A stretch of DNA of 18,242 nucleotides from Candidatus Bathyarchaeota archaeon (GCA_963706285.1 CAVPLU010000002.1:1-18242), one strand, 5' to 3'. Positions 2,366 to 18,242 are shown, counted from the stretch's first letter. Numbers and translations: made by a program. The notes: generated by a model not told the origin, from the letters alone.

Positions 2366-2763
2366 ACAGTTCACCTCCCAGACTCGCTGAGTAAGCAAAC
2401 TGCAGTTGCTGACTTCTATTCTACGTGACGCTTGTCAAAGTAGACGATAACGACGCTGAAATCTATCTTTCGGCAGGTAACCCGTACGTTTCCACTTACA
2501 CTGTAGCAATCTCTGCCAGCGTCCTCTGCATTAAGCGTTTGAGGCACAAGGGTGTCCTCTGAATTCACTCAACTCTTTGATGCGGGCGGCGAGTTATGGA
2601 TTGAGGGATTCCTGAGGTTTGGTGGAGAATTAGCGTCTGTCACAATCAAGATAAGAAAAACGGAAAGGCAGAGACCGATGTAGTTCGGCTGCTAGCTGGG
2701 TCTGAGCCAGAAACGTCCTGCTGATCAATGGATGGCACCGTGTTCATGCGTTAATGGGATAGG

Positions 2764-4210
2764 TCATCGTCGCGTCAGTTGGTAGTGATGTTGAAGAAGA
2801 TGCCGGTACTGCTCCAAGTCATTGTCGATTGGAATGCGCGTTGGACCACTTCGCTCATTGCAGGATGAATATGCATAGCGTCAAGCAGCGGGCGGGCGTT
2901 CTGATCCGGCGTGTACATGAGATTGACGATCTCTTGAATCAGAGAAGACGCATATGGTCCGATAATGTGTGCTCCAAGAATTCTGGAACTGTCTCTCTCT
3001 AGGATGACCTTGACGAAGTAGCTCTTTCAGGTCCATCGCCTCGCCCTTCGCAGTATCCTCGTACCGTTGGAAGCCGACGTCAGATATGCGATCCTCACCG
3101 TATTGTTTGGCTGCCTCTACTTGCTTGAGGCCAACGCTGGCTATCTCAGGATACGTGAAGACGGCATGGGGGACAGCGTGATAGTCGACTCTGATCTTCT
3201 CTTTCATCACAGCATTGTAGTAGACGATAATGGACTCGTAGTTGGCCACATGCTCGAAGTAGATGTCTCCCATTCGGCATCGCCGAAAGCCCAGACGTTA
3301 GGTTGGGAGGTCTCGAGGTACTCGTTGACACTGATCCATCCTTTCTCGTCGGTCTTGATGCCTGCTTTCTCTGGATGCAGGATGTCAGTTTTAGGGCCCC
3401 GCCCCTGACGGGACTAGGAAATCTCATCCGCTATGATCGTCTTGGTCTCCCCAGTCTGTCTATGGACGGCGACGATCTTCTTCTTGCCCTCCTGCGTCCT
3501 CTCGGTCTGGACGGCTTCATAATTCGTGAGTATGGTCATGTGCTTGCCCAATTCACGCATGGCTAGGGCTCGAGACTTCCGGTTCCTCCTGTGGTAGGAA
3601 TTGACGGTTGCGGCCGATAATCGAAACCTTTGAGCCCATGGCTGATAGGAAGTGACCGTATTGCAGCGGCAATGTATCCTCCACCTATGACAGCCACACT
3701 CTCCGGGAGCTGCGTCTGGTGAAGGATAGTATCACTCGTCTGGTAGCCTGTCTGCTCAAGTCCTGAAATTGGGGGTATGATTGGTTTCGATCCTGTACAG
3801 AGGAGGAACATCTTCGACGTGATATTCTCCCGCCCTACCTTCAAGGTATACGGACGGACAAACTCAGCTGGCAAATGGTAGTAGTCGATGTTCTCCGACC
3901 CAGTCAGTCCTTGTCGGATGGAATCAATTTCTCCGTCAATTAGCGTTCTCATTCGTTTCATTACTTTCGCGAAATCAACTTTCTCGATCTTCAAGTCGAT
4001 ACCGAAAGTGTTCGCGCTTTCCATTATGCGCACCAGCTCGGCAGGCTAGAGCAGAATCTTTGATGGAATACATCCTCGAGTGAGGCAGATTCCACCTGGC
4101 TCATCCTTATCGACTACGGCCACCTTGATGTTCGGATCACGTCGTAACATAGCGTCGACAACGTTCATCGCTGAACCTGAGCCAATAGCGATCAGATCAT
4201 ACTCTTTCAT
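2764..4210 (-). CDS. Pyridine nucleotide-disulfide oxidoreductase (dihydrolipoamide dehydrogenase / mycothione reductase-like), interrupted by one in-frame TAG and several frameshifts
   Basis: ATG4210 gives MKEYDLIAIGSGSA...GGICLTRGCIPSKILL*PAEL. Later segments across frames: VIGGGYIA, VWAFGD, VPHAVFTYPEIASVG, ILGAHIIGP, HIHPAMSEVV. 3' end approximate. Confidence 0.88.
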
Positions 4211-4241
4211 GCGCTCATAGGTCATGGGTCTACGCCTGCAG

Positions 4242-6713
4242 TTATCTGCGAACAGTCTCGCGTCGCTGTTGAAATAGCAATTTGCAGTCCGGGTTTACAA
4301 TCCGAGTCTTCTGAACACGTAGTGTTTCGGCAAATCTATGCCCAATGTGAGGGCTGCTGAGATATGCAAGAATGAAGAGGACCTCGAATATTGTAAGTTG
4401 CGGCACAATGACACCGTACACTCCTAGCAACGCGAAGCCGATTATGGTGGCCGTGCTTGCGATTAGCAGTTCCCTACCAGGCCACGATGACCAGGAGTGC
4501 CTTCTCTCGCGGACGATGTATATTCTGAACTGGCTTGTGAATATGAGCATCAACATTACGTAGCTCTGGAGTTCTCCCCATTTCAGGCCGAAGTAATCTA
4601 TGCCGACCAGAACCGCAACTGCACCGCCGGCGACCAGCAAGACGCCGATAACAAGCGATGCCAGAATGATTTTTTTCACGTTCCAAAGATTCGGGCTGCT
4701 TGTGTACTCAACGTTGTCAGTTGCGACAGACATTGTAACGAAGTCGTTTGCGAACACGACCAGAACCATGCCTAAGACAGAAATTATGGCGCCTTGCAGC
4801 CAGAAGTAGCCTAGGACGAGCAGGCCTACGAATTGTATGACCTTTGAGACCTTATTGATCACCCAGGTGAGCATTCGCTGGTAGATCTGCCTGCTTGTCT
4901 TTATCGTTTGGATGATTTGACGCGTGCCTGGCTCGGTTAGGACTATGCTCGCGGACGCTTTTGCGACGTCTGTTGAGTTGCTTACCGCTATCCCGACCTC
5001 CGCTTGCTTGAGAGCTGGTGCATCATTGACGCCATCTCCGGTCATTCCGACCATGTGCCCTCGGGATTGTAGAAGCTTGACGATTCTGTACTTGTCTTCT
5101 GGATATATCTCAGCAAACCCGTCGTACTCATCGAGTATCTTTGCCTGTTCGGCTTCGCTTTGGCTCTTGAGATCGGATGCTCGGTAGATCTTGTCACCAA
5201 TCGATACTTGGTGTGCTATCTCCTTGGCAACCGCAATGTTATCGCCTGTGAGCATCTTCGTCTTCACTCCCAAAGTCTTGAGCTCCTCTATCACACCCTT
5301 CGAGTCTGGTCTGATGGGATCGGCCAGCGGCAGCAATCCGACGAGTTGAAAAGTGTCTGGGGCACCAGCTTCCGACTTAGCCACCGCTATTGTTCGGTAG
5401 CCCTTCTGAGATAATTCCTCTACTGCCTTGTTGGCTTGAGTTCGGGTCTCTTCACTCACGGAGTGGCAAATGGAGATTACCATTTGCGGCGCTCCCTTCG
5501 TAACTTTGAAGCGCTGTGCGCCGCGATCTATGATTGCCTCTGATCTCTTGGTTGCAGGTTCGAAGGGAGTGAACGAAACCTGTTTGTACGCGCTAGAATC
5601 TATGCCGGCAGCCTTCGCGTAGCCGATTACTGCTAGATCTATCACGTCCTTGGTTTCATCTCTGGAAGCCAAGCTTGCGAACAAGACCACGTCTTCTTTC
5701 TTGAACCCTAGAAACGGTATCGGATCAGTGATCGACAGTCTGTTCTGGGTGATTGTGCCTGTCTTGTCCAGGAGGAGTACTTCCATCGAGGCTGCGTCTT
5801 CGATTGAATCGAGCCTTGTTACTAGTGCGCCTTTCTTTGAGAGTTCTATTGCTCCCACGGCTAGGACGACGGCGAAGACGGCTGGTAATGCGACAGGGAC
5901 AGCTCCTAGGAGAAAAGTCAAGGTGAGGTTCAGCAGTGATGGGATGTCGGCGTGCACAAGAACAGAGTCGGCGCCAACTACGACCAACGCCGCCAAGCTC
6001 ACGTACATCATGTATTTGACGACGGCCATCATTATCTGTTCTTGATGTGATGCTGGTTTAGCTATCCTGACTAGTTGTGCTGTCGTGCCGAAATATGTGT
6101 TCGCTCCTGTGTTGACTACGATACACCTAGCCTCTCCACGCTTTACTACGGAGCTTGAATAGACGATTCCCGATTTGCGGGCGGTCACTGGAAGAGATTC
6201 GCCTGTGAGTGCTGACTGATCAACTGAGACTTCACCGTCACCTGATACCTTGGCATCGGCTGGTACCAGATCGCCTAGCCCGATACCAATTATGTCCCCT
6301 GGGACCAAGTCTCTGGCATCTTGAATTTTCCATTCGCCGTTGCGCAGAACCCTCGCCTTGACCGCCAGTCTCTTCTTCAGAAGGTCTAGGGCCCTCCGCG
6401 AACTGCGTGTGTGCAAGAAACCTATGATAGCGTTCGTCGTGAGCAGTCCGAAGACTATTGCTAGTTCCAGATAGTGGCCTAGAATGTAGGAAAGTGCCAT
6501 TGCTGATTCTAGGAGCCAGGGCATCGGACCCCAGTAACGCGACAAGAAGTCAAGCACTGGATTCCTCTCCTTCTCCACAACCTCGTTTCGTCCAAGTCTA
6601 CCGATTCGCTCCAAGACTTCAGACTCAGTGAGACCGTTGGAAGACGTTTCGAGCAGCCTGATTGTTTCTTCGACCGAGATCTCTTCGTATTCATTTGTGC
6701 TTCTGGGGTTCAC
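4242..6713 (-). CDS. Plasma-membrane proton-efflux P-type ATPase (type IIIA)
   Basis: Motifs YWGPMPWLLE, TGES, PVALP, DKTGTIT, KGAP, MLTGD, GDGVNDAPALK, and TM6 ND. GGAGG SD upstream of the GTG. The last ~30 aa look frameshifted near 4340. Confidence 0.93.
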   Translation of the reverse strand: MNPRSTNEYEEISVEETIRLLETSSNGLTESEVLERIGRLGRNEVVEKERNPVLDFLSRYWGPMPWLLESAMALSYILGHYLELAIVFGLLTTNAIIGFLHTRSSRRALDLLKKRLAVKARVLRNGEWKIQDARDLVPGDIIGIGLGDLVPADAKVSGDGEVSVDQSALTGESLPVTARKSGIVYSSSVVKRGEARCIVVNTGANTYFGTTAQLVRIAKPASHQEQIMMAVVKYMMYVSLAALVVVGADSVLVHADIPSLLNLTLTFLLGAVPVALPAVFAVVLAVGAIELSKKGALVTRLDSIEDAASMEVLLLDKTGTITQNRLSITDPIPFLGFKKEDVVLFASLASRDETKDVIDLAVIGYAKAAGIDSSAYKQVSFTPFEPATKRSEAIIDRGAQRFKVTKGAPQMVISICHSVSEETRTQANKAVEELSQKGYRTIAVAKSEAGAPDTFQLVGLLPLADPIRPDSKGVIEELKTLGVKTKMLTGDNIAVAKEIAHQVSIGDKIYRASDLKSQSEAEQAKILDEYDGFAEIYPEDKYRIVKLLQSRGHMVGMTGDGVNDAPALKQAEVGIAVSNSTDVAKASASIVLTEPGTRQIIQTIKTSRQIYQRMLTWVINKVSKVIQFVGLLVLGYFWLQGAIISVLGMVLVVFANDFVTMSVATDNVEYTSSPNLWNVKKIILASLVIGVLLVAGGAVAVLVGIDYFGLKWGELQSYVMLMLIFTSQFRIYIVRERRHSWSSWPGRELLIASTATIIGFALLGVYGVIVPQLTIFEVLFILAYLSSPHIGHRFAETLRVQKTRIVNPDCKLLFQQRRETVRR

Positions 6714-6939
6714 GCGGGGAACAACCTCCTGACTTAATCATACTTGTGAGAGGTCTCGGCTCCAGAGATCGCCTCTTGGACCAAATCGATTAGTCATCCA
6801 GCGGGCTTCAGTATCTTCTTTGCTAATTTCGAAAGGCCCGCTGGGTCTTACGATGCGTGACGGAGGGTTGAGTGGACCCGGGCAATTCCGAAGCTTTTTT
6901 CAGTTCAAGCTATCATCTTGACGCGTACGGTCGTTAAAC

Positions 6940-7203
6940 ATGTCGCGGATCACCTTCAGGGCCCCGCTCTTCTACTCTATGCTGAGTCTCGGTCTTCTCA
7001 CGATGGTAACAGGTTTCATCCTGTACCTGTGGCCGCATGGTCCCCGTTCGGGTCAACTCATATTCCTGGGACTCGACAAGAGCGGATGGGGAACGTGGCA
7101 CACATACATCACGCTCATCGCCATCGCCCTGATACTCGTGCATTTGGTAGAGAACAGGAAGTGCGTAGACGTCTACGTTAAGACCACACTTGAGAAAGCT
7201 TGA
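6940..7203 (+). CDS. DUF4405 domain membrane protein (two His-bearing helices)
   Basis: TGFILYLWP.G......FLGL.K..W...H.......I..ILVHL.EN pattern. Confidence 0.8.
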   Translation: MSRITFRAPLFYSMLSLGLLTMVTGFILYLWPHGPRSGQLIFLGLDKSGWGTWHTYITLIAIALILVHLVENRKCVDVYVKTTLEKA

Positions 7204-7279
7204 CCAACTGATTACTGGACTGTCTGGACACAACCGCCATTGCACCCTCTTATCAAGATGGGTGCGGTCGAAAGAGTTA

Positions 7280-7299
7280 ATTCGAATATCTATTCAATA
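7280..7299 (+). promoter_or_regulatory. Putative operator copy (GAATA-N2-TATTC) downstream of a BRE/TATA-like element
   Basis: ATTCGAATATCTATTCAATA preceded by cgaaagagtta, about 40 nt upstream of ORF 7340. Confidence 0.5.
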
Positions 7300-7339
7300 A
7301 CTCCTGGCGTCGAAACATCGGTCTGGGGTCTGCGGAAGG

Positions 7340-7810
7340 ATGTCATCAGCCATCAAACAGGCGTGCGGTATAGTTGGGCAGTTGAGGGCGCAGGGGAGAC
7401 CTTGGCTTGAAGTTCAAGATGAACTGGAGAAGGCAGCGATCAAGCAGGGTGACTATCGGCCTTTGTACTTCGGATGCGAAACCGCACCTTACAGGATGCG
7501 CTTTATTCCGAAACGCGAACCGCGAATACTCTCGAGAGAATTCGATGAGGAGCTTACACGGATCGCGCGAGAGCACTCGTTGGTGGTTCAGATGAGGTGC
7601 ACAGGCTACAACCTCTTCATAGACACGCGGAAACCAGACGGAGCCTTGCAGATGGTTAGGAAAGCTATTCACTTGCCTCATAGAACTGAATGGTTGAAAG
7701 CTTTCTGGCTTGACAAGTACTGCATCGAGGTGGACCGCCCTGACCTACCAGGCATGCCAGAGGCTCTTGAGAAGATCGGAAGCCGACTCTACGGGATGGC
7801 CACCAAGTAG
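7340..7810 (+). CDS. Hypothetical protein (156 aa)
   Basis: Uninterrupted ORF with natural composition, a GGAAGG just upstream and a promoter-like element upstream; no family recognised. Confidence 0.7.
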   Translation: MSSAIKQACGIVGQLRAQGRPWLEVQDELEKAAIKQGDYRPLYFGCETAPYRMRFIPKREPRILSREFDEELTRIAREHSLVVQMRCTGYNLFIDTRKPDGALQMVRKAIHLPHRTEWLKAFWLDKYCIEVDRPDLPGMPEALEKIGSRLYGMATK

Positions 7811-7903
7811 TATCGCGCAACTCTCATCGACTGGCGACACGCCTGAATTCGCCTAAACTTTGCATGGGAGCGAGCCTACACTTACTCCAGCCCGTTAGTT
7901 CGA

Positions 7904-8667
7904 CTAGAACTGCGTTTTCTTGTTCAGCACAATGACCGCGACTGTCTGAAGGATGATAGCCCATGCCAACAGGACTCCCAGATCTAAGGCGAACTTGATG
8001 CTCGGAACCATCATGGCTTCTCCCAACGCATCGGTCAGGTAAGTAAGCGGTGTCAGGTAGGATATGATTTGCAGTTCAAATGGGAGAGTCTGTATCGGGA
8101 TGAACACTCCACCGATGAACATCATCGGCAGCCTCAGAGCGGTCAACGACATGTTCGCGGTCGGCATATCCTTCGCAGCTGCTGCAAACAGCATTCCAAG
8201 AGCAGAGAAAGCAAAGGTTCCAACAACTATTGCAACCACGAAAAGGATTGGATTCGCTATCCGTCCTCCACCCAACACAGTAGCTCCCACTGCAGTTGCG
8301 AGTGAAAGCATTATGCCAAAAGCAGAACCAGCAAGCGACTTCCCGAGCACTATAGTTGCGGTTGAGACTGGAGCGGTCTGAAGAATCTCATAGGTCTGCG
8401 TCTGCTTCTCAATCGTAATAGATATCGCCTCAACGGAAGACGCTCCGAATAGGGAGACCATACCGACGAGTCCTGGGATCAGCAGATCAGGAGGGATTTC
8501 ACGTCCAATAGAGAAAGAAAGGTACAGGAAAGCCGGTATCAGTATGCCGAACCCGAGTATCTGAGGTTTGAAGTAGTAGATCTTCGCGTCCTTCTTGGCA
8601 ATGCAGCCGCCTTGCTCATCGCGCCGAAGATCGACTTTCTTGAGCGGTTTGGGTATGCGTCAGCCAT
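7904..8667 (-). CDS. ABC-2 type exporter permease (frameshift near 8605)
   Basis: IAKKDAKIYYFKP, LIPGLVGM, EKQTQTYE.L..AP, GGVFIPIQTLP...PLTYLTDAL. ATG8667 overlaps the stop of the upstream ATPase gene. Confidence 0.88.
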
Positions 8668-9650
8668 GTTGACCGCCGCCTTTTACAGCTCGAAGAGATT
8701 CCATCCTCTCGACTTGAACCGCATCTAACCCAGTGTACTTGACGAAAACATCTTCCAGACTGGGTTCCTTAGTGTTCAAGCTTACTATCTTCAGACCGTT
8801 CGATCTGGCAAATTGAGCTACTTCCGCGATGATGACGCTAGCATCTGATGTGTGGATCTCGTACTTGCTACCGCGCTTCGCAACTTCCCCTCACGCCTGC
8901 GCGGGATGCAAGAAGATTTACCAGATCTGGGACGTCCTTGTCGAAGACAACTTCAACGACATGTTCGCCATGAAGCGAGGATTTCAATCTCTCAGGAGAA
9001 CCTTCCACAACGATTTTGCCCTGTCTTATTATGGCGACTCGGTCGCATAGCTGGTCGGCTTCATCGATGTAGTGGGTTGTTAGAAAGACCGTCACACCTT
9101 CCCTGTTCAGTTCTCTGATGATCGACCGGATAAGCCTAGAACTTTGGACGTCTAGCCCGCTTGTTGGTTCGTCGAGGAAGAGAACTTCGGGACGGTGGAG
9201 CAATGCAGCGGCTATGCGTATTCGGCGTTTCATGCCCTTGGAATATCCGAATAGGCGGTCCTTTCTTCTATCGTATAGCTGAAAGGCTTCAAGCAGTTGC
9301 TTAGCTCGTGCTTCTCTCGTGAGTTTCTCGACGCCGTAGAGTTCGCCGATGAACATCAGGTTGTCCCATGCGGACATCTCATTGTAGAGATTGCTTACCT
9401 CGGATACGACGCCGATCCTCTGCTTGACCGCTAGGGCTTCCCGAGCGCAGTCTCGGCCGGCGACCTTTGCGGTTCCGGATGATGGCTTCGTAAGCCCTGT
9501 CAACATACGAATCGTGGTCGTCTTACCGGCACCGTTCGGTCCGAGGAGACCGAAGAATTCACCTTTAGCAACTCTGAAATCTATGCCATCCACGGCTGTC
9601 AGATTACCATACTTCTTGGTCAGGTTGCCAACTTCGATTGCGCTTTCCAT
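8660..9650 (-). CDS. ABC exporter ATP-binding subunit (DrrA/CcmA-like; frameshift near 8890)
   Basis: Walker A GPNGAGKTT, signature YSKGM, Walker B LFLDEPT, H-loop TTHY. The C-terminal EPSLEDVFVKYTG lies in a shifted frame ending at TGA 8660. Confidence 0.92.
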
Positions 9651-9672
9651 CCTCTTCCATTCTCGCCCAATA

Positions 9673-9780
9673 CTATCGTTTCAGCTCAAGGATCTGTTCT
9701 TCAACAGGTGCAAGTTCTTTCTTCGGTCCTTCCTCACACTTCCTGAGAACCTCAACTTCGCCAACTCGTCTGAGCAACAT
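9673..9780 (-). CDS. Small coiled-coil ORF, possibly DUF5320-like and possibly degenerate
   Basis: MLLRRVGEVEVLRKCEEGPKKELAPVEEQILELKR* resembles the E.L......LKKEL..VEE.I.ELK tail of small proteins I recall upstream of archaeal ABC-2 operons. Alternative GTG start at 9798. Confidence 0.4.
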   Translation of the reverse strand: MLLRRVGEVEVLRKCEEGPKKELAPVEEQILELKR

Positions 9781-9851
9781 GGCTGTGGGCTTACGCACCT
9801 AGTATCCTGTGACTCTCTTCAGATTACACGTACCGAGTGCGGCATCGGATT

Positions 9852-10487
9852 CTATTCTTTGAATCGCAGGTCAAGGTCAACATTTAGGCCTTCAAAGGCA
9901 TCGTGAATGTCCTCCGTCAGACTCTTCGCGAGCTCACTGTCCGGTTTCGCCTTCAAGTCCAAAACTATCTTGTTGCCCTCGATCTTTGTGCCTTCCAGTA
10001 ATTTGGAAGAGACTATGTCCGCTCCCTGAACTGGGTCAAGTACGCCACGTAGTATTTTGTTGACGAAAGGTTCGTCAATCTTGACGCGTCCTCTCTTTGC
10101 CTCGTATTTGAGAAAGGCCGTCTCGAGACCTTGCCTTGAGAGAACGGCGCAGTGAAGCTTGATTTTGGGGAGACCGCCAAGGTTTTCTGAAATATTCTTG
10201 AATGTGACGTTCCTTGCCTCCTCGATCGTCTTGCCTTTCACCATCTCTGTCATCATGGAACTTGCTGCTATGTTGGCGGCGCAACCATGTGACTCGAACT
10301 TTATGTCCTTGATTTGATCTCGATCAGGAACGAATTTCAAGTACAGTTTGATCAGATCACCGCAAGATATGCTTCCGACCTTGGATGTGACATCTGCATC
10401 CTCGATGACCCCGACGTTTCTAGGATTCTTGAAATGATCCATCACTTTCTCGGAGTAGCCGAACTTCTTCGCTAGAGTTTCAGACAT
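9852..10487 (-). CDS. iscU: IscU/NifU-type Fe-S scaffold with C-terminal DUF59 (FeS_assembly_P)-like extension
   Basis: YSEKVMDHFKNPRNVG, CGD, GCAANIA, LPKIKLHC, with all three scaffold Cys present. The C-terminus ILRGVLDPVQGADIV resembles the DUF59 L..V.DPE...DIV pattern. Confidence 0.88.
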   Translation of the reverse strand: MSETLAKKFGYSEKVMDHFKNPRNVGVIEDADVTSKVGSISCGDLIKLYLKFVPDRDQIKDIKFESHGCAANIAASSMMTEMVKGKTIEEARNVTFKNISENLGGLPKIKLHCAVLSRQGLETAFLKYEAKRGRVKIDEPFVNKILRGVLDPVQGADIVSSKLLEGTKIEGNKIVLDLKAKPDSELAKSLTEDIHDAFEGLNVDLDLRFKE

Positions 10488-10716
10488 TCGCCATCACTTC
10501 CTCTGATACGCCCTTGCTTGCAAGCGGGCTATTGGCTCTGGGAGTCTCCGCGACTTGTTTGACCGATTCGGTCGCATAGGCTAAGCCCTCTTTCGTCATC
10601 CACTTTGAGAGACTCAGACGAGTTGAGCTGTGAGACTCTTCGAGCGTGCCTCCGATGGCTCGGATAACGTGGCTTGGCTAGAACAAGGAGGGATCCAGTC
10701 TGCTGTGTACGAGGTT

Positions 10717-11112
10717 TCACTGGTGGTGACATGATCCGTTCGCGCTGGTGTGTTGTCCGCACAGACTATCTTGTGTCATTGCGTATGTTTCTCCTCTTAG
10801 ATAGGAGTCGATGGCATCACTTACGGTTCCTGTGATTCCGCATCTGATCTCGATTCCTAGTTGTTTGAATACCAAGTATGGGCGCATTCCCATTCCTCCC
10901 ACAAGCATTAGGTTGACTCCTTTCTCTGCGAGCGCTCTCACGGGGCTAGCGCAGTCAGAGTGCCCTCCATTCAATATCGACTCCGTCGCCTTTAGCTTTC
11001 CTTCTTCTAGTGTTACTATCGCGTAGGAGTCGCATCGGCCGAAGTGAGGTGATACTTGCGATTGGAGGCTTGCCTCACCTGTGCATGGTATTGCTATCTT
11101 GATTCTATCCAT
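10717..11112 (-). CDS. NifB/NifX-family (MTH1175-like) cofactor-binding protein
   Basis: KIAIP...VSPHFGRCDSY...GGMG.RP motif and a Cys/His tail (CGQH...CHHQ). GGAGG SD before ATG11112. Confidence 0.9.
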   Translation of the reverse strand: MDRIKIAIPCTGEASLQSQVSPHFGRCDSYAIVTLEEGKLKATESILNGGHSDCASPVRALAEKGVNLMLVGGMGMRPYLVFKQLGIEIRCGITGTVSDAIDSYLRGETYAMTQDSLCGQHTSANGSCHHQ

Positions 11113-11116
11113 TTGC

Positions 11117-11452
11117 TTAGCGTCCTCCTGTCCTTCCACGTTTTCCGGTTCGTTTTCTTTCTTTAACGACATATTCTCCACCTTCAATTCTGATTGCTTT
11201 ACCGTTGACCAGGGCGTCTGCGACCTTGCTATGTGCAGATTGTAGGATTCGATGAAATGTCGGCTGGGACACATTCATCGTCGCGGCGGCTCTCTCCTGC
11301 TCCATCGATTCGAAGTCTTTCAATCGTATTGCCTCAAGCTCGTCCACCGCCAAGCTGACCCTATCGAGTTCAGTCATTGGTATCCCTCTTGGTTTGAAGT
11401 AGTTGACGGATGGCTCGCAGCAGACCGTCCGACATATCTTCGGCCTGGCCAT
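11117..11452 (-). CDS. DUF134 (UPF0251) HTH DNA-binding protein
   Basis: MARPK..R.V...P....FKPRGIP...ELEAIRLKD...QE.AA..MNVSQPTFHRIL.SA..KVADALVNGKAIRIEGG. Confidence 0.93.
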   Translation of the reverse strand: MARPKICRTVCCEPSVNYFKPRGIPMTELDRVSLAVDELEAIRLKDFESMEQERAAATMNVSQPTFHRILQSAHSKVADALVNGKAIRIEGGEYVVKERKRTGKRGRTGGR

Positions 11453-11454
11453 AA

Positions 11455-11474
11455 TAACGAATAAATATTCAGAA
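11455..11474 (-). promoter_or_regulatory. Putative operator immediately upstream of DUF134 copy 1
   Basis: Minus strand reads cgaaaggcttatctgg TTCTGAATATTTATTCGTTA tt ATG; 18/20 identical to 15909-15928. Confidence 0.7.
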
Positions 11475-11567
11475 CCAGATAAGCCTTTCGAATGAGGAAG
11501 GCGATCTAGCGGACGTTGAGCAGCGCCAGAGTCCTGTGTTGCGCTCGTTTCCGGGCTTCTCGAGTTC

Positions 11568-12234
11568 TTAGAGTCTGATCTTCGGAACCAGCTTTCCATG
11601 CTTCAGCCCTTTGATGGGGTTGTGATCTAGTAGTCGGTCTTTGACGATGAAAGTTGTGACGAGCGCGTTTGAGTTCTTTGTGAAGAGCATGTCGTGACCT
11701 ACACACAAGCCAACGATTATGTTGACTTGCGCCCCAGCTCTGTTGAGCATTTCAGCTTGAAGTATCGGGTTGCATGCTGCTTCAAACACGTTTTTCCTTT
11801 AGTTTTGTATTTTTCTGGAACTCCGAGGTTTGTCTTGTCGGCAGCGCCGCATTTGCAGCAGACAGATGCCACATCAAAGCCTTGCTCTCTTCAGCAACTT
11901 CACTAGCGTTGATGCTTCGTCACGCAGCGCGACGCAGAAGGCAACGCCCATTGTTTCGATGCCTTGAAACTTCCCGAAATCTACTAGTTGCTCTATTCGA
12001 GACTTGACTACTCTGGGAACTCCCAGGATAGTGGGAGTTGCTGCTTTCTGAGTGGCTGCGGCGTTAACGTAGGTTTCCTTGACATCATCGTCAGAGTACC
12101 GATTAGCCGACCGCTTGATAGCATCAGGATTGCTTCGCATGGGGCAGTATGCGTGGCAGCGCGTCTGCGTTCAGCTCTTCCATGGGAGACGAACGACAGT
12201 AAGCGCCAGGACATTCCGCACATCGAGGACTCAA
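11568..12234 (-). CDS. DUF1847 Cys-rich metal-binding protein (frameshifts near 12155 and 11885)
   Basis: From TTG12234: SPRCAECPGAYC...YCPM, then GVAFCVAL, SVCCKCGA.DK, ACNPILQA..LN, IVGLCVGHD.LF, VKDR.L.HNP. Confidence 0.9.
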
Positions 12235-12283
12235 TGCTGAACCTATCACCGACAATCACTCTGCCCGTCAGGAGCATCGCTCT

Positions 12284-12297
12284 TGATTGGCCAATCA
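12284..12297. promoter_or_regulatory. Perfect 14-bp intergenic palindrome TGATTGGCCAATCA
   Basis: Read directly, about 50 nt upstream of the DUF1847 start; function unknown. Confidence 0.4.
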
Positions 12298-12434
12298 TAA
12301 TTCGATCTTGCACGCTGTCTCCACCCGCAACCCAGCATCAACGTGTCTTGCGCGTTAGGCTAGTGCTCCATTGCATGATGATCCAGGTCCAACCTCAGAA
12401 CTCGTCGAAAGGAATGTGAGCGCCGTATTTTCCC

Positions 12435-13452
12435 TCAAGACACATCGCGTTTCGTCGCGCAAGGGGATGGTCCTGTAAGGAGTCTCAAATCCGGCTTCCC
12501 ACAGCATTCTCCGACATTCTTCAACAGACAAGCCTCTTCCGCGCGAGGTGGAGGTGTCAAACTCCGCGTCCCTCGGATTTGGCCCTGCCTCTGCCCACAG
12601 TAGATTCGCGCCAGCAAGCAGAGAAGGCAGATTTGGTTCATGTGTGCAGTGCGCAAGGAGAGAATCACCCATGACGAGCCTGCAAACCGCGACTGCCTTG
12701 GCGAGGCTTGGCGAAGTTATGTCTCCGTGGTGGTGAAGTGGCATACCCTCAGCTGAGACTCTTCGCATAGCTCCGTGCAGACTCACGCCCAGGTCTTTTC
12801 CAAGAAACATTAGATCAACCATCTCTTCAGCTGTGTGTTCAGGTCCGATCGGCTCAAGACAGAAGAGCGCAGATAGACCGACGTTTTGAGCCGATTTGAT
12901 GGTTCGCACTCGCACGTCTGGGTCTATCGTGGTATCACGTCCCTCTCTGAGTCTGACCGCATGGTAGATCGCAGTGAACCCTGCTTCAGCCATGGACTCT
13001 GCTTCGCTCGGACCGAAGTCTCCTATGTTAGCCACCATTGGCATACGAGGTGAAAGAGAGGCCTTGACTTGTTTTCCAATTTTGAGGAACTCGTCAAAGT
13101 CGTACCCATCGGTTGTCATGAGGTAGATTGCATTTGCCCCAGACGCTTGAAAGATTTTAGCTCTGGCCACAACCTCGTTAACATCAAATTTGACGCGCTT
13201 TTCAGCGATTGTGCCGAATACACAGAACTTGCATCTCTTGGAACATGGCGAATAATCAATCCCGATCTGAGCGTGAACTTCGCCCATGTTGTGGAACTGT
13301 TGCCTTGTCATCCTGTCCGCGACGAAATAGAGCGAGTACATTTCAGGCGAATGGACATCAATCTCCATCAACCTCAATGCCTCCTCCCTAGTAATTCCGC
13401 TTCGCGAAAGTCCCTTGCTTAAGATGGCCTCTACGTCGGAATTTGCTTTCAT
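12435..13452 (-). CDS. Radical SAM protein, biotin-synthase (BioB)-like fold, function unknown
   Basis: CSKRCKFC (CxxxCxxC), YHAVRLREG.DT, EPIGPEH, CTHEPN, EAGPNPRD. Likely ATG at 13452. The C-terminus is probably frameshifted (~12478); the unshifted frame ends at 12355. Confidence 0.85.
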
Positions 13453-13533
13453 TTCAATCCTCAGAACCGTCACCTTTCGACGAGCAAAGATCTTGCGGCT
13501 GTTAGTCTGAGCTGTGATTCGGACATAAACTCG

Positions 13534-13553
13534 TAACGAATATTCATCCAAAA
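13534..13553 (-). promoter_or_regulatory. Putative operator upstream of the radical SAM gene
   Basis: Minus strand reads gcaaaagcctta TTTTGGATGAATATTCGTTA; 15/20 identical to the 11455-11474 site. Confidence 0.55.
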
Positions 13554-13672
13554 TAAGGCTTTTGCTGCTTTCATTCTGCGTTGGTTCGCATTGCATCGAG
13601 TTATGATATTCCAAAGAATCGTCCTTGAAGGACACCCAAGCCTACTGTCTCGCAAAGACTCGTGCCTAGTCG

Positions 13673-14447
13673 TTATTCACGCTCGACGTTCGATGCCAAT
13701 ACTCCGTCCAGCAACCTCTCAATACTGTCGGCTGCTGTTCCAAATTCCAGCGTCTTTCCATGTAATGCTGATTGAAACAGATCGTTATCGTAAGGTATCG
13801 AAGCCTCCACCTTGATGTCTCTTCTCGCTAATTCTCCTCTCATGAATGCGACTGTGTCTTCGTCTCCGACCTTGTTGAGGACTGCGCGAAACTCGATACC
13901 CACAGAATCGGCGAGTCTCTTCGCTTCTTTGCAGAGTTCCAGAGCTTCATATGACGGATCAACGACGAACAAGATCATCTCAGCAAGCGCGTCCAAGCCT
14001 CTTCCGAAGTGTTCCACACCTGCCTCCGTGTCAAAGACTCACAAGAGTTCTACCCTTGAATGGATAGGAGAGGATCTCTCTCGATACTGCTCCATGAGGA
14101 CAAGCACACCCTGAACCGGCCTCTCGAATCTTTCCAACCTCGACAAAGGAGAGATCCCTGAGCTGTCGGTCTTTTCCATGACAGACTTGACTGCGGCTTG
14201 AAGCTCATCAGACGCAGCGTCCTTCAGCGTTCCAAACGCGTGAGTCCTACCCCCTATCATGTCCATCAGGGTCGGATTGGACTCGTTCACGCCGAGCATT
14301 CTCCTGATTCCCGGATTAGACTCGTCCGCGTCCACTACGACCCACATGGAGCCCGCGCCTGGCAGCGAGCTTCGCTAGAAGTGCAGCTGTGGTAGACTTG
14401 CCGCTGCCGCCTTTCCCCGCCACAATGATACGCGTCGCGCGTTCCAA
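13673..14447 (-). CDS. cooC: CooC/AcsF-like nickel-insertion ATPase (three frameshifts)
   Basis: Reconstructed segments: IIVAGKGGSGKST, VDADESNP, VGKIREAGSGCACPHG (Ni-binding CxC, in an alternate frame at ~14150-14045), DTEAGVEHFGRG, VVDPS, VLNKV, IPYD. Confidence 0.85.
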
Positions 14448-14640
14448 ACCAACATCGAACAGCCGTTGATATGAGGATGATAATATCTGTTTTCGAGATT
14501 CGCAAGCGCTTCCTCAATGACTGGTAGGCCCGATAGAAGCCGCTGGCAAAGCCCCGAACGTGATTCCTAGGAGAAGTTGACGGGCCCGGTGGGGCCAAAT
14601 GGGCACGTGATCGGACGTTTTCTGAGTCCATGTTTCGTTC

Positions 14641-15525
14641 TCATTTACCACTCCCCAGAGAATTCTGCTCCTCTATCCTTCCTACGATTTCCATGAATGC
14701 TTTCGCAGCAGGAGAGTCAGAGTGCTGGATTATGAATGGAGTACCTTCATCTGAGTCAGCACAGACTCTCGGGTCGAGAGGTACACTCCCCAAGAATGGG
14801 ACCCCCAACTGTTCCGCAATCTTCTTACCTCCTCCACTCTTGAAGATATTCGTTTCTGTACCGCACTTGGGACATACGAAACCACTCATGTTCTCAATGA
14901 TGCCTAAGACAGGTGCACCCAACTGGCGAGCAAATGTGACAGCCTTCTTGACAACTATCTGCGATACCTCAGATGGAATAGTGACTATGACCACCCCTCC
15001 GATGTTTTGGATGGACTGCACCACCGTCAAAGCCTCGTCGCCCGTCCCTGGTGGCATGTCGACGAGGAGAAAGTCGAGATCTCCCCACACAACTTCACCT
15101 AGAAACTGTCTTATGGCTGCAGACTTCATGGGCCCGCGCCAGATTACAGGGGTCTCGTCACTTGGTAGAAAGTAATCCATCGAAATGACCTTCATATCGA
15201 AAGGACCCAGCGCGGGGAATACTCCCGGTGGACCCATGGCAAGTCCATGGGATCTCACTCCGAGCATCTTCGGTATACTTGGACCTGTGATATCGGCATC
15301 AAGAATTCCAACTCGGCCGGCGTGACCTTTTCTTGCCAGCGCAATACCTAGGTTCGCTGTCACGGTACTCTTGCCAACACCGCCCTTGCCGCTAAGCACA
15401 ACTATCTTGTGTTTGATCTTGTCCATGGAGGCCTTGACGCGCTGGTCTTGTTCCTGTCTTTCAGAATCACATGGACTTGACGCTCTTCCTCCCTCCGGTT
15501 GACCAATCGATTGTTTCCCGGTCAT
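14641..15525 (-). CDS. mrp: Mrp/NBP35 (ApbC) family Fe-S cluster carrier ATPase
   Basis: SGKGGVGKSTV, DADITGPSIP, VIWRGP, DMPPGTGD, ENMSGFVCPKC. Confidence 0.95.
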   Translation of the reverse strand: MTGKQSIGQPEGGRASSPCDSERQEQDQRVKASMDKIKHKIVVLSGKGGVGKSTVTANLGIALARKGHAGRVGILDADITGPSIPKMLGVRSHGLAMGPPGVFPALGPFDMKVISMDYFLPSDETPVIWRGPMKSAAIRQFLGEVVWGDLDFLLVDMPPGTGDEALTVVQSIQNIGGVVIVTIPSEVSQIVVKKAVTFARQLGAPVLGIIENMSGFVCPKCGTETNIFKSGGGKKIAEQLGVPFLGSVPLDPRVCADSDEGTPFIIQHSDSPAAKAFMEIVGRIEEQNSLGSGK

Positions 15526-15906
15526 CCCCGGACTCTCTCCCCAGGCTTCCGGGCTAAGCCTTCAGCTCCTACTGACCGTAGCCGAGCGGGTGACGGTTCG
15601 CGAGCGCGGGTCTTCTTGATGACGTAGCTGCAACCCTCAATCCTGAGGGCCTTTCCGTTGACCAGGGCGTCTGCGGTCTTTCTATGCGCAGACATGAGCG
15701 TCCTGTGAAGGGTCGATTGAGATTATCCGCATCTTGACTGCCGTTGGCTCCTGCCCGAGTCCTTCCAAGTCCTTGAGCCGGACAGCTTTGAACTCTTCAG
15801 CTGTGAGACAGATCTCCTCAAGCTCGATTAGCGGGATTCCTCTTGGTTTGAAGAACGTTGCCTCAGGCTCGCAACATACCCACCGGTTTTTCTTCGGCCT
15901 TGCCAT
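15522..15906 (-). CDS. DUF134 HTH protein, copy 2 (frameshift near 15722)
   Basis: MARPKKNRWVCCEP..FFKPRGIP..EEFKAVRLKD, then a shifted frame SAHRKTADALVNGKALRIEG ending in TGA that overlaps the mrp ATG (ATGA). Confidence 0.88.
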
Positions 15907-15908
15907 AG

Positions 15909-15928
15909 TAACGCATAAATATTCATAA
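15909..15928 (-). promoter_or_regulatory. Putative operator immediately upstream of DUF134 copy 2
   Basis: Minus strand reads cgaagactttattag TTATGAATATTTATGCGTTA ct ATG. The TATA-like tttatta lies about 25-30 nt before the ATG, a leaderless geometry. Confidence 0.7.
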
Positions 15929-16060
15929 CTAATAAAGTCTTCGAAACAGTGACATAAATCCTGAGACCATCTCTGAAGGTTGACGTTCCAATAATGTCAA
16001 GATAGTGACATGCTGACGCAATGCGTCTTCGGACCAAAAACAGAAAGGAATGAGGGACTG

Positions 16061-16954
16061 ATGAGTGCAGATGATGCCAGAACGATCCTACTTCGAAGGG
16101 GGATTACCGTCTCAAGTAGGTCTACGCTTGTTCTGGTGGTTCTGTCCATCGCCAAGGTGACTGTCGGTCTACTCTCTGGGAGCATAGCGTTACTTGCCGA
16201 CGCTGCACACACACTCATGGATATTGCAGGATCCGTGATTGTGTGGCTGGGCCTACGATTATCGCTGAGGAGACCCACCGATCAATTCCCATACGGTTTC
16301 TACAAGGCAGAATCCATCTGCACGCTAATCGTCTGCATTATCATGATCTTCACGGGGGCAGAAATCTTACGGGATTCCATAGAGCGGTTCTACGTTCCTT
16401 CTGTGATCTCATTTAGGCCGCTCGTGATTGCCGTTGCTGTCGGGTCTGGCTTTGTCTCCTACTTTCTAGCTCGATACAAGGAGAAGGCAGGACGAGAGAC
16501 CAACTCTCAAGGCTTGAGGGTCGAGAGCAGGCACTCCTTCGCCGATGTCCTGAATTCCGGTCTGGTCTGTGGGGGTGTGCTCTTCACCTATCTGAACGTA
16601 TCTTGGGTGGAGCCGTTGGCGGCGGTCATCATATCCGCTTTCATATTTTGGGCGGCGCTCACGTTCGGTAAGGATTCCATCTTTTCACTCATGGATGTCT
16701 CACCCCAGCCGGCGATCAGAAAGGCAATCGAAGACACCATAGTTGGCACTCCCGAAGTAAAGGGCGTTCACGCCTTAAGAGTCAGAAGATCAGGCCCGTT
16801 CATTTTCGTAGAAGCACATGTTGAGGTCAACGGAACAACCAGCCTCGAAAAAGCTCACATGATAGCAGATGAGGTCCAAGACAGAGTCCAAGAGAAATTC
16901 AAAGAAGTAGATTCGATGTCGATACACGTCGGCATGCGCGAAAAACACAGTTGA
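16061..16954 (+). CDS. Cation diffusion facilitator (FieF-like) transporter
   Basis: GSIALLADAAHTLMD, FPYGFYKAE, HSFAD, LRVRRSGPFIFVEAHV. The ORF track start at 16010 is also possible. Confidence 0.92.
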   Translation: MSADDARTILLRRGITVSSRSTLVLVVLSIAKVTVGLLSGSIALLADAAHTLMDIAGSVIVWLGLRLSLRRPTDQFPYGFYKAESICTLIVCIIMIFTGAEILRDSIERFYVPSVISFRPLVIAVAVGSGFVSYFLARYKEKAGRETNSQGLRVESRHSFADVLNSGLVCGGVLFTYLNVSWVEPLAAVIISAFIFWAALTFGKDSIFSLMDVSPQPAIRKAIEDTIVGTPEVKGVHALRVRRSGPFIFVEAHVEVNGTTSLEKAHMIADEVQDRVQEKFKEVDSMSIHVGMREKHS

Positions 16955-17050
16955 ATCAGGCAGTTGTGGCTGGGACTTGGCGAAATGAAAGAGACCGCCG
17001 TGTCAGTGTTAGGCGAGAGAGGGATCTAGGAGAGGGTGGTGAGGGAGAAG

Positions 17051-18242
17051 ATGGGTGTTGAAGAGAAGGTCCAGCTTCTGCGGAAAGGGGCGCGAGCCGC
17101 CAAGCGTTCCACCTGCGTGACGATCATGCTCACTGGCATGAAGGTTGCTGTTGGTTTGCTGTCGGGCAGCATCGCGCTTCTAGCGGATGCCGTACACTCG
17201 GTTTCTGATGTCTTCACATCACTCGCCGTGTGGCTCGGGATGAAGCTGTCCCAGAGGAGACCGTCTGAGAGGTTCTCATATGGCTTCTACAGGGTGGAGA
17301 CCCTAGCGTTCCTGGTCGTCTCTATCGTTGTTGCAGTTTCAGGAATACAAGCCCTCTTGGTTTCGTTGAGCCGAATCCTCAACCCGTCACCTGTTGCTCT
17401 TGCTTCCGCCACTCTCTCGGTGGCAGCTGTCTCAGCGTTGGTCTCGTATGTGCTGTATCGATACAAATCGCGAATAGGAGATGAGACGAATTCTCAGGCG
17501 TTGCAGGGCGAAGCAAAGCACTCCTTGGTCGATGTCTCATCCTCGGCGCTCGTCTTTGTCGGAATACTCGTTCACTACTTCGGTTTATCTTGGGCGGAAG
17601 GAATCGCGGGGCTGCTGATAGGTCTCCTGACCATTAGACTCGGTTTCGGAATGGGCAGGGATGCTGTCTTGTTCTGTTGGATGCTTGCTTGAAACCAGAA
17701 TTCATCTCCCAAATGAAGAAGATCGCATCCGAGGTCAATGGAGTCAGAGGCGTTCATGAAATCAAAGTGAGAAGGTCCGGTCCGTTCATCTTCGCAGAGA
17801 TGCACGTCGAAGTGGACAGGGCAATGCGGATGGACGAGGCTGATGTGATCTCGAGAACCATTGAAGAGAGAATCAGAGACTCGATAGGTGAGGTGGATTC
17901 CGTGATGCTCCACGTGGAGCCCTCGAAGAAGGATCTTTAAAGGATTGCCATACCCGTCGAACAGGACAAAGGTCTTGATTCGAAAGTATCCCAGCATTTT
18001 GGGAAGAGCCCCTACTTCATACTGATCGATCTGCACAAAGATGGCCCGCAAAGCTGGTTCGTGATAGAGAATCCTGGGGCGGGAATTGAGAGGAAGAGAG
18101 GAATCGAAGCTGCGCATCTTTTTGCCCATCACAAGGCAGACGTCCTTGTCGCCAGGGAAGTCGGTGAAGGTCCCTACCACGTGCTTAGAGACAGCTCAAT
18201 TGCGATCCTTGCCCTCGATAACGAATTAGACGTAGCAGGCCT
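17051..18242 (+). CDS. CDF transporter fused to a C-terminal NifB/NifX domain (frameshift ~17675, in-frame TAA 17938-17940, runs off the window)
   Basis: GSIALLADAVHSVSD, YGFYRVE, HSLVD, KVRRSGPFIFAEMHV...LHVEP. Past the TAA the same frame reads RIAIPVEQDKGLDSKVSQHFGKSPYF...VGEGPY. Confidence 0.85.

Follow-up and report, generated by a model that had tools for sequence, protein, structure and literature searches.

A 20-bp palindrome at DUF134 promoters of a Bathyarchaeota contig, very probably the binding site of DUF134 proteins on iron-sulfur and metal-handling genes

An 18,242-nucleotide (nt) stretch of DNA from Candidatus Bathyarchaeota archaeon (GCA_963706285.1, CAVPLU010000002.1:1-18242), referred to here as the window, carries four 20-base-pair (bp) sites, S1 to S4, related to one palindrome; two of them stand directly before genes of the DUF134 family (Pfam PF02001). 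Because this palindrome accompanies DUF134 genes in many archaea and bacteria, it is very probably the binding site of the DUF134 protein itself, placed on genes for iron-sulfur (Fe-S) and metal handling. The sites are likely to act as operators, here called DUF134 boxes: a DUF134 dimer would bind the 20-bp dyad, regulate its own genes and control a conserved gene, orf7340, with S3 being mis-spaced. We infer binding by DUF134, repression rather than activation, and a signal related to metals or Fe-S clusters; repression is favoured by the position of the box only.

The four sites are found at exactly the coordinates and on the strands given in the initial annotation of this sequence. S1 (15909-15928, minus strand) and S2 (11455-11474, minus strand) lie in the core promoters of DUF134-2 (15618-15906, minus strand) and DUF134-1 (11117-11452, minus strand), covering positions -22 to -3 from the ATG; as annotated, 2 nt separate the end of each site from the start codon of a PF02001 gene. 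Both sites follow strings that read like a transcription factor B recognition element (BRE) and TATA box, at 11475-11489 (minus strand; retained in relatives) for DUF134-1 and at 15929-15943 (minus strand) for DUF134-2. The first T of TTAT is located 30 nt ahead of the A of the ATG, after a purine-rich BRE-like string; since this distance fits, the DUF134-1 and DUF134-2 transcripts are apparently leaderless, with the 20-mer at -22 to -3. S1 also falls within a 103-nt divergent region toward a cation-efflux (CDF) gene. S4 (7280-7299, plus strand), a variant box in the promoter of orf7340 (7340-7810, plus strand), overlaps the 3' end of the BRE/TATA-like string CGAAAGAGTTA (7269-7279, plus strand), which is identical or near-identical in box-bearing orthologous upstream regions. 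S3 (13534-13553, minus strand) is a doubtful site 81 nt before the probable start of a radical S-adenosylmethionine (SAM) gene. S3 and S4 stand before neighbouring genes in the cluster, an arrangement also seen for extra boxes at other DUF134 loci, and all four sites are single dyads.

Alignment of the two DUF134 genes together with the 20-mers before them gives 68% identity over 298 nt, which bears out the suggestion that S1 and S2 share ancestry through gene duplication; the 20-mers agree at 18 of 20 positions. S1 and S2 descend from one promoter, and they are best read as autoregulatory operators.

Comparison was made with 79 further loci fetched by protein match to DUF134-1, containing 80 DUF134 starts in 778,260 nt. 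These loci come from Bathyarchaeia, Methanosarcinales, several DPANN lineages, Thermoplasmata, Dehalococcoidia, other Chloroflexi, Deltaproteobacteria/Desulfobacterales, Elusimicrobia, Leptospirales and others. The ideal 20-bp dyad that emerges consists of TTATGAATAT and ATATTCATAA meeting at the dyad axis. The core proposed earlier, GAATA-N2-TATTC, stands as the centre of the site but not as its whole unit, which is the 20-bp dyad TTATGRnnATATnnYCATAA (16 specified positions) with TGAA-N6-TTCA geometry. The palindrome takes the form TTATGAATATATATTCATAA in most archaea and some Deltaproteobacteria, TTATGAGCATATGCTCATAA and TTATGGGCATATGCCCATAA in Dehalococcoidia, and TTATGGACATATGTCCATAA in other Chloroflexi.

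A match to at least 13 of the 16 specified positions lies within 120 nt upstream of 41 of the 80 DUF134 starts. Across the full 778,260 nt, perfect 16/16 matches number 20, with a further 25 at 15/16, 20 at 14/16 and 41 at 13/16; of these 106, 42 are located at most 120 nt ahead of a DUF134 start. Where a locus has no box next to the gene, a strong one is in most cases found 270-1800 nt upstream, in front of a preceding same-strand gene that is often a DUF5320 gene. In the archaeal loci the box abuts the start codon; in the bacterial ones it is placed 10-30 nt ahead of it, before a Shine-Dalgarno string. The dyad is thus found in the core promoters of DUF134 genes or operons in both domains, as expected of a motif conserved upstream of DUF134 orthologues. 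DUF134 autoregulation through this motif, proposed in the initial annotation, is strongly backed by this comparison across phyla.

The window sites are not all equally close to the consensus. A manual count finds 12 of the 16 specified positions matched in S1 and S2, and the GAATA-N2-TATTC core of S4 is perfect. S1, S2 and S4 have the dyad in register; S3 does not. The promoter-proximal half of the window sites is degenerate (TTCGTTA versus TTCATAA), and this deviation is conserved in the genus. Relatives of the same genus (G002, G004, G008) and of another family (G036) carry TTATGAATATTTATTCGTTA or a near variant at the same place; the S2-type site is kept in six loci of these four genomes, with flanks beyond the BRE that cannot be aligned. 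The S1 20-mer is found unchanged before an intact DUF134-2 orthologue in metagenome locus L159.

Plain likeness between 20-mers is a poor guide to these sites. S3 agrees with S2 at 15 of 20 positions, a level reached at nine positions of the genome, and S4 at 14 of 20, reached at 72; neither is above background, and plain likeness was rejected as proof of the motif. The exact core GAATA-N2-TATTC occurs at four places in the 2.13-Mb genome, one of them in a copy of part of the window on contig C8, where simple arithmetic leads to an expectation of about two. An independent matrix was trained only on 14 sites of DUF134 loci from archaea other than Bathyarchaeia. In the window, only S1, S2, S4 and S3 reach 4 bits or more, and all are intergenic. 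S1 scores 22.4 bits, the best in the genome; S2 and its C8 copy score 21.7 bits; S4, at 16.3 bits, is the third best distinct locus; S3 scores 13.7 bits in the window and 14.2 bits in the C8 copy. S1 to S4 are four of the six best distinct loci on both strands of the 2.13 Mb. In ten order-3 Markov genomes, 2.13 Mb hold on average 2.9 positions that reach 13.6 bits and 0.9 that reach 16 bits, so that in the 18.2-kb window about 0.025 positions are expected at 13.6 bits or more (the level of S3) and about 0.008 at 16 bits or more. Scanned in this way with a matrix from other DUF134 loci against a randomised background, the four window sites exceed chance.

The other two of the best six loci lie outside the window. 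C10:158039 (14.9 bits) was rejected as a genuine site and taken as chance because it is inside a 327-amino-acid (aa) open reading frame (ORF). The best box-like site outside the window, C18:11211-11230 (15.4 bits), is intergenic and has the string CAAAGAGTA ahead of it, like the S4 promoter. No clear gene is present downstream of C18:11211 in matching orientation. From a tentative reading of the sequence, this site adjoins an ORF with a short-chain-dehydrogenase-like N-terminus.

Half-site class varies with the DUF134 protein. The recognition helix of the family starts with S-[Q/R]-x-T-F-[H/Q/G]-R, and the half-site class tracks the first variable residue of this helix in 68 of 68 loci. All 44 loci with glutamine (Q) at this residue, among them that of the window gene, have GAATA as a half-site of their best site; leaving the window gene aside, 83 of 86 half-sites at Q loci are GAATA. 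With arginine (R), GAATA is found in none of 24 loci, where GAGCA, GGACA, GGGCA or GAGTA occurs instead. Sub-classes of half-site track the fifth helix residue (H, Q or G): R..Q helices accompany GAGCA or GGGCA, R..H helices GGACA or GAACA, and R-A..G helices GAGTA or GAGAA. The helix of DUF134-1 starts with SQPTFHR, with glutamine at residue 63 and histidine at residue 67, and is of the Q..H class that is paired with GAATA half-sites; that of DUF134-2 would read SQSTLHR past a frameshift. All four window sites have GAAT-type halves, in agreement with the local helix class. The link crosses taxonomy: some Deltaproteobacteria combine Q with GAATA and others R with GAGT, and one archaeon combines R with G(T/A)GCA. 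When the motif columns are left out of the protein tree, helix and half-site traits change only three times, always jointly. Contacts of glutamine with adenine and of arginine with guanine are a common pattern of base recognition. The link between helix residue and operator class, glutamine going with GAAT halves and arginine with G..C halves, is suggestive.

DUF134-1, the candidate repressor, is a 111-aa protein that matches PF02001 with 107 bits. In DUF134-2 a 1-nt frameshift directly ahead of the recognition helix divides the gene in two; the first piece matches PF02001 with 33 bits (cut-off 27) and the second lies in another frame. Either the gene is a pseudogene or the break is an error of assembly; its orthologues are intact in metagenome loci L158 and L159. 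An AlphaFold2 (AF2) model of DUF134-1 has a predicted local distance difference test score (pLDDT) of 75.9 and helices at residues 36-47, 52-58 and 63-83. Its best Foldseek match is 7bhy, the DNA-binding domain of DeoR on its operator (probability 1.00, root-mean-square deviation 0.7 A over 40 columns, 38% identity, E 0.05), and the next are sigma-70 region 4 domains. In a phmmer search against PDB sequences, 7bhy is also first for DUF134-1 (E 0.11), and Pfam Sigma70_r4_2 matches are found in ten other DUF134 proteins. The statement that DUF134 carries a helix-turn-helix (HTH) is consistent with these models and matches, which point to the DeoR/sigma-70-region-4 type.

The predicted homodimer of DUF134-1 scores 0.80, the best of three controls scoring 0.00; among solved structures, 20 of 30 pairs of one chain reach the mark used for a dimer, as does one of 23 single chains. 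The homodimer runs agree in at least 95% of contacts, with a partner pLDDT of at least 81; no residue from 50-70, where the recognition helix starts, is among the contacts listed. This prediction supports the pairing of DUF134-1 as a homodimer. The N-terminus of the protein contains three cysteines, C7, C11 and C12; position 7 is a cysteine in 36 of 77 DUF134 sequences, and 28 of the 77 have no cysteine in the first 16 residues.

Bacillus subtilis DeoR, of the SorC family (DeoR subclass), has been solved as a DNA-binding domain on the dra-nupC-pdp operator (PDB 7bhy, 8r7y); the left operator OL is ATTGAACAAAATTTCAAT, that is, TTGAA-N6-TTCAA (PMC11229326). Both DeoR and DUF134 have a small HTH of the sigma-70-region-4 type, and DeoR is the best match to DUF134-1 in the PDB by structure as well as by sequence, although these matches are weak by E-value (0.05 and 0.11). 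The recognition helix starts with S-R-P-T in DeoR and S-Q/R-P-T in DUF134. A pair of DeoR domains is described on TTGAA-N6-TTCAA, and the DUF134 box, TGAA-N6-TTCA, has the same inverted-repeat geometry; the DeoR form is literally that of the S4-type sites of relatives (TTGAATA-N2-TATTCAA). DeoR is also described as a repressor at its own locus, which resembles the autoregulation proposed for DUF134. The differences are in size and architecture. DeoR, as given in the same source, is a protein of about 313 aa that carries a sugar-phosphate effector domain and acts as a tetramer on a 39-bp two-part operator; DUF134-1, at 111 aa, has instead a conserved N-terminal arm and, towards the C-terminus, the strand region NGKAIRIEGG, and its box is a single 20-bp dyad. 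No C-terminal sugar-phosphate-binding effector domain is found in DUF134-1 by Pfam or NCBIfam.

S4 had been placed before a "hypothetical ORF". The placement holds, with 40 nt to ATG 7340, but the gene is not merely hypothetical: orf7340 is a real conserved gene with a conserved site. It encodes a 156-aa protein of no recognisable family or fold. It has 74 homologues at 54-97% identity, all unnamed and without a Pfam family, and invariant Cys, Trp and Tyr positions; the protein itself has no Pfam or NCBIfam family match. Its AF2 model (pLDDT 84) has no Foldseek match in the PDB at E <= 0.001, and the best Z of a wide VIA-align search is 5.8, inside the tool's stated noise level. Among metagenome loci, 55 have at least 100 nt upstream of the gene and yield 48 distinct upstream regions. 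An S4-type box is located 39-44 nt before the orf7340 start in 31 of these, after the nearly invariant CGAAAGAGTTA. The two central bases vary among these boxes (TG, TC, CC, CG, GA, AA) while the half-sites are constant, in relatives as TTGAATA-N2-TATTCAA; such spacer turnover with kept half-sites is a sign of selection. Most box-bearing contigs also have a boxed DUF134-NifX-like operon 1.3-1.9 kb onward, convergent with orf7340. From this conservation, orf7340 is a candidate lineage-specific member of the regulon.

These observations can be joined in a simple mechanism. A DUF134 dimer would recognise the 20-bp dyad through two TGAA/TTCA half-sites separated by six bases. At DUF134-1 and DUF134-2 the box takes up the interval from TATA box to start, so that a dimer bound at S1 or S2 would block RNA polymerase; the DUF134-NifX-like and DUF134-Mrp operons would then be repressed, which amounts to autoregulation. 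A dimer on S4, over the TATA region, would repress orf7340 too.

Several points weigh against this reading. The core promoter is conserved as a whole along with the box, and for this reason conservation alone cannot separate an operator from a promoter. DUF134-2 may be non-functional, given its frameshift. The fold and PDB sequence matches of DUF134 are above the usual E-value thresholds (none has E <= 0.001 by Foldseek), and the dimer pass may partly reflect solved dimers of the DeoR type. The agreement between helix and half-site rests on about three changes, with one independent pair on well-supported branches; a phylogeny-aware sign test cannot reach significance with such numbers, and the link consequently carries no statistical weight of its own. 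The excess in the genome beyond DUF134 promoters is small, with five further positions that reach 13.6 bits where 2.9 are expected, and the two genome sites outside the window may therefore be chance. Of the 48 distinct orf7340 upstream regions, 17 have no box; these belong mostly to diverged orthologues (at most 74% identity), plus one group at 79-80%.

S3 adds to these points. It has a perfect left half, ATGAATAT, but this runs into the right half, ATATTCGTTA, which is of the S2 type; the half-sites are spaced 4 bp too closely and the dyad is out of register. On contig C8, in the 93%-identical copy of this region, an A of the S3 core is replaced by C, and paralogous radical-SAM loci (41-47% identity) have no box. 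The radical-SAM gene (12355-13452, minus strand; PF04055, 34 bits) is weakly BioB/PylB-like, matching NCBIfam bioB with 48 bits, far under the cut-off. The initial annotation placed S3 before this gene. It is indeed upstream, but not close: the in-frame start after GAGG is ATG 13452, which puts S3 81 nt away, and an ATG 7 nt past S3 is out of frame with the gene. In a search of 41 genomes the gene is found in three (E <= 1e-20), and besides the C8 copy only the 41-47% identical paralogues are present. The place of this gene in the regulon is doubtful because S3 is mis-spaced by 4 bp and relatives hold no orthologue of the gene at which the site could be compared. S3 may be a weak site or a half site, or else what is left of a decayed DUF134 promoter copy, and it is rather unlikely to be functional. 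An 18-codon ORF (13470-13526, minus strand) opens 7 nt past S3, again with TTAT 30 nt ahead of its ATG; this is either a leaderless mini-ORF or the remnant of a duplicated DUF134 start.

Three other explanations were considered. The conserved 20-mers could be core-promoter sequence, namely a TATA-proximal element and the initiator of strong leaderless promoters. This would account for a box that fills exactly the TATA-to-start interval at S1 and S2, and for a BRE/TATA string at S4 that is conserved equally with the box. However, the same dyad occurs with DUF134 in bacteria, which have other transcription machinery and place it at other distances from the start codon, and it is a near-perfect palindrome with variable spacer and constant half-sites whose class tracks a residue of DUF134. 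Moreover, the box is present at only four places in the window and at about six distinct loci in the genome, and hence is not a general promoter feature. Taken together, these observations make a core-promoter origin highly improbable. It is also very unlikely that the boxes are operators of another regulator which merely co-occurs with DUF134. Other regulators do lie near some loci, such as a DtxR-type gene divergent from the box in L069; in the scanned box-preceded operons of the 79 DUF134-fetched loci, however, no other DNA-binding family is recurrent, the half-site class follows the DUF134 recognition helix at all 68 loci, and the fold predicted for DUF134 is that of DeoR-type proteins, whose operator shares the TGAA-N6-TTCA geometry.

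Another explanation is that only S1 and S2 are functional, S3 and S4 being leftovers of duplicated DUF134 promoters that have been kept by descent. The window does contain duplicated DUF134 genes, S4 resembles the DUF134 promoter of G036, and the S3 promoter resembles the S2 promoter with insertions and deletions (common elements AAGSCTTATTT..GG..TGAATATT..CGTTA). For S4, a leftover does not fit well with a box that stays at a fixed distance before orf7340 in most of its distinct upstream regions, with its spacer turning over and its half-sites kept. As an account of both sites this explanation is very unlikely; for S3 alone, a leftover of a duplicated DUF134 promoter is the preferred reading.

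With DUF134 operators as the preferred explanation, the genes behind the boxes indicate what the protein may regulate. S2 heads DUF134-1 and a NifX-like (Nitro_FeMo-Co) gene (10717-11109, minus strand; PF02579, 64 bits) which follows directly, its probable start ATG 11109 lying 8 nt past the DUF134-1 stop; a NifU/IscU-type scaffold gene (9852-10487, minus strand; by Pfam/NCBIfam) and an ABC transporter lie further along the same strand. S1 heads DUF134-2 and a Mrp/NBP35 gene (14641-15525, minus strand; PF10609, 326 bits) that resembles the N-terminal part of MrpORP and is probably in the same operon. S1 also faces the CDF cation-efflux gene (16010-16954, plus strand), which is divergent from DUF134-2; in other Bathyarchaeia a CDF gene is located within or beside the DUF134 operon. 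S4 heads orf7340. The Mrp protein matches the N-terminal part of NCBIfam MrpORP with 343 bits (cut-off 450), and the NifX-like protein matches the same model with 56 bits at positions 265-364 only, the C-terminal domain. By these matches, the Mrp and NifX-like genes of the window appear to form an orange-protein-type system whose domains are split over two DUF134-headed operons.

Box-preceded operons in the other loci contain 131 ORFs. DUF134 itself accounts for 32, DUF5320 for 19, Nitro_FeMo-Co for 18 (six fused to DUF134) and ArsP_1-like permease halves for eight. Cation_efflux and DUF364/DUF4213 are represented by four ORFs each, Mrp-type ParA by three, MinD/CbiA-type ATPases by three (two with a ferredoxin insert), DnaJ by two, and NifU and ZIP by one each. 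The earlier label of a regulon for Fe-S or metal-cofactor maturation appears apt, as the NifX-like, Mrp, CDF, NifU and DUF5320 target genes fit it. A fused or adjacent NifX-like domain is a candidate sensor, as an alternative to the N-terminal cysteines. In loci L056, L064, L067, L081 and L091 (DPANN, Methanosarcinales), pairs of half-size ArsP_1-like permeases stand beside DUF5320 and DUF134. Their gene content hints that some DUF134 regulons may concern a metalloid or other exported ion.

The kind of system proposed here is familiar: an autoregulated dimeric HTH repressor with a dyad in its own core promoter. MDR1 of Archaeoglobus fulgidus, a metal-dependent repressor of the DtxR type, has an operator over or between the TATA box and the start of its own operon. 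The DUF134 boxes resemble it in the TATA-to-start position, on the protein's own operon and beside metal-handling genes; the protein family is different. To our knowledge, archaea lack sigma-54. Another relative by gene content is the orp (orange protein complex) cluster of Desulfovibrio vulgaris Hildenborough, which is described as controlled by sigma-54 and OrpR (PMC8359166; PMC6345978). As described there, it combines a Mrp/NBP35 carrier with a Nitro_FeMo-Co (orange-protein/NifX-like) domain, the same kind as in the window, and its regulator is an enhancer-binding activator working with sigma-54; the window has instead a small HTH protein and a dyad in the archaeal core promoter. MrpORP is fused in sulfate reducers, while in the window its two parts are encoded by separate genes of different operons, and an Orp3/Orp4-type MinD-ferredoxin gene was not identified there.

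A literature search found no published DUF134 operator, in line with the initial annotation, which knew of none characterised in archaea. The search also found no paper on the function of DUF134 (UPF0251, COG1342), and the 14- and 16-base box palindromes occurred in none of the papers searched. As far as these searches reach, the function of the family, its operator and the rule that links helix residue to base are undescribed in print.

The window is the whole of contig C2 in a genome of 2.13 Mb, 21 contigs and about 51% GC, with a stated contamination of 7.5%. The sequencing data sets listed as containing this DNA are DNA data sets with a small share of it, and none is RNA. Positions 10715-14502 have a copy at 93% identity on the end of contig C8 (C8:109426-113207), and positions 2698-7206 have one at 95% identity on the end of contig C9 (C9:150398-154895). 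Because of these near-identical copies on contig ends and the stated contamination, contig C2 may be a strain variant or a true duplication. By ORF reading, genes at 2881-4033, 13673-14631 and 17036-17692 look broken or frameshifted on this contig. The three short ORFs at 13673-14631 have no family match in Pfam and NCBIfam scans; the impression is that they are candidate pieces of one broken CooC/MinD-type ATPase gene. Within 1311-1638 there is a stretch of about 200-310 nt with copies 79-87% identical on contigs C13, C16, C18 and C19, probably a short repeated or mobile element.

DUF134 is an old, widespread family of anaerobic archaea and bacteria whose function is unknown; its Pfam model also has a match in Methanosarcina acetivorans, of a cultivated genus. 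A defined 20-bp site, a predicted dimer, a residue-to-base rule and a list of targets make it directly testable as a regulator. Its targets are little-understood genes for Fe-S or metal-cluster carriers, namely NifX-like/orange protein, Mrp, DUF5320 and CDF. In addition, orf7340, a conserved gene without recognisable fold, is flagged as functionally tied to the DUF134 system in an uncultured lineage of Bathyarchaeia, which is present in peat, wetland or sediment habitats. More tentatively, DUF134 could be a cross-domain family of small repressors, with one conserved dyad serving in archaeal (TATA-to-start) and bacterial core promoters alike, that ties the expression of orange-protein-type Fe-S/metal-cluster carriers and metal exporters to the state of a metal or cluster, with sensing through the variable N-terminal cysteines or through the NifX-like domain; orf7340 would then have been recruited in this lineage as an additional component of the pathway.

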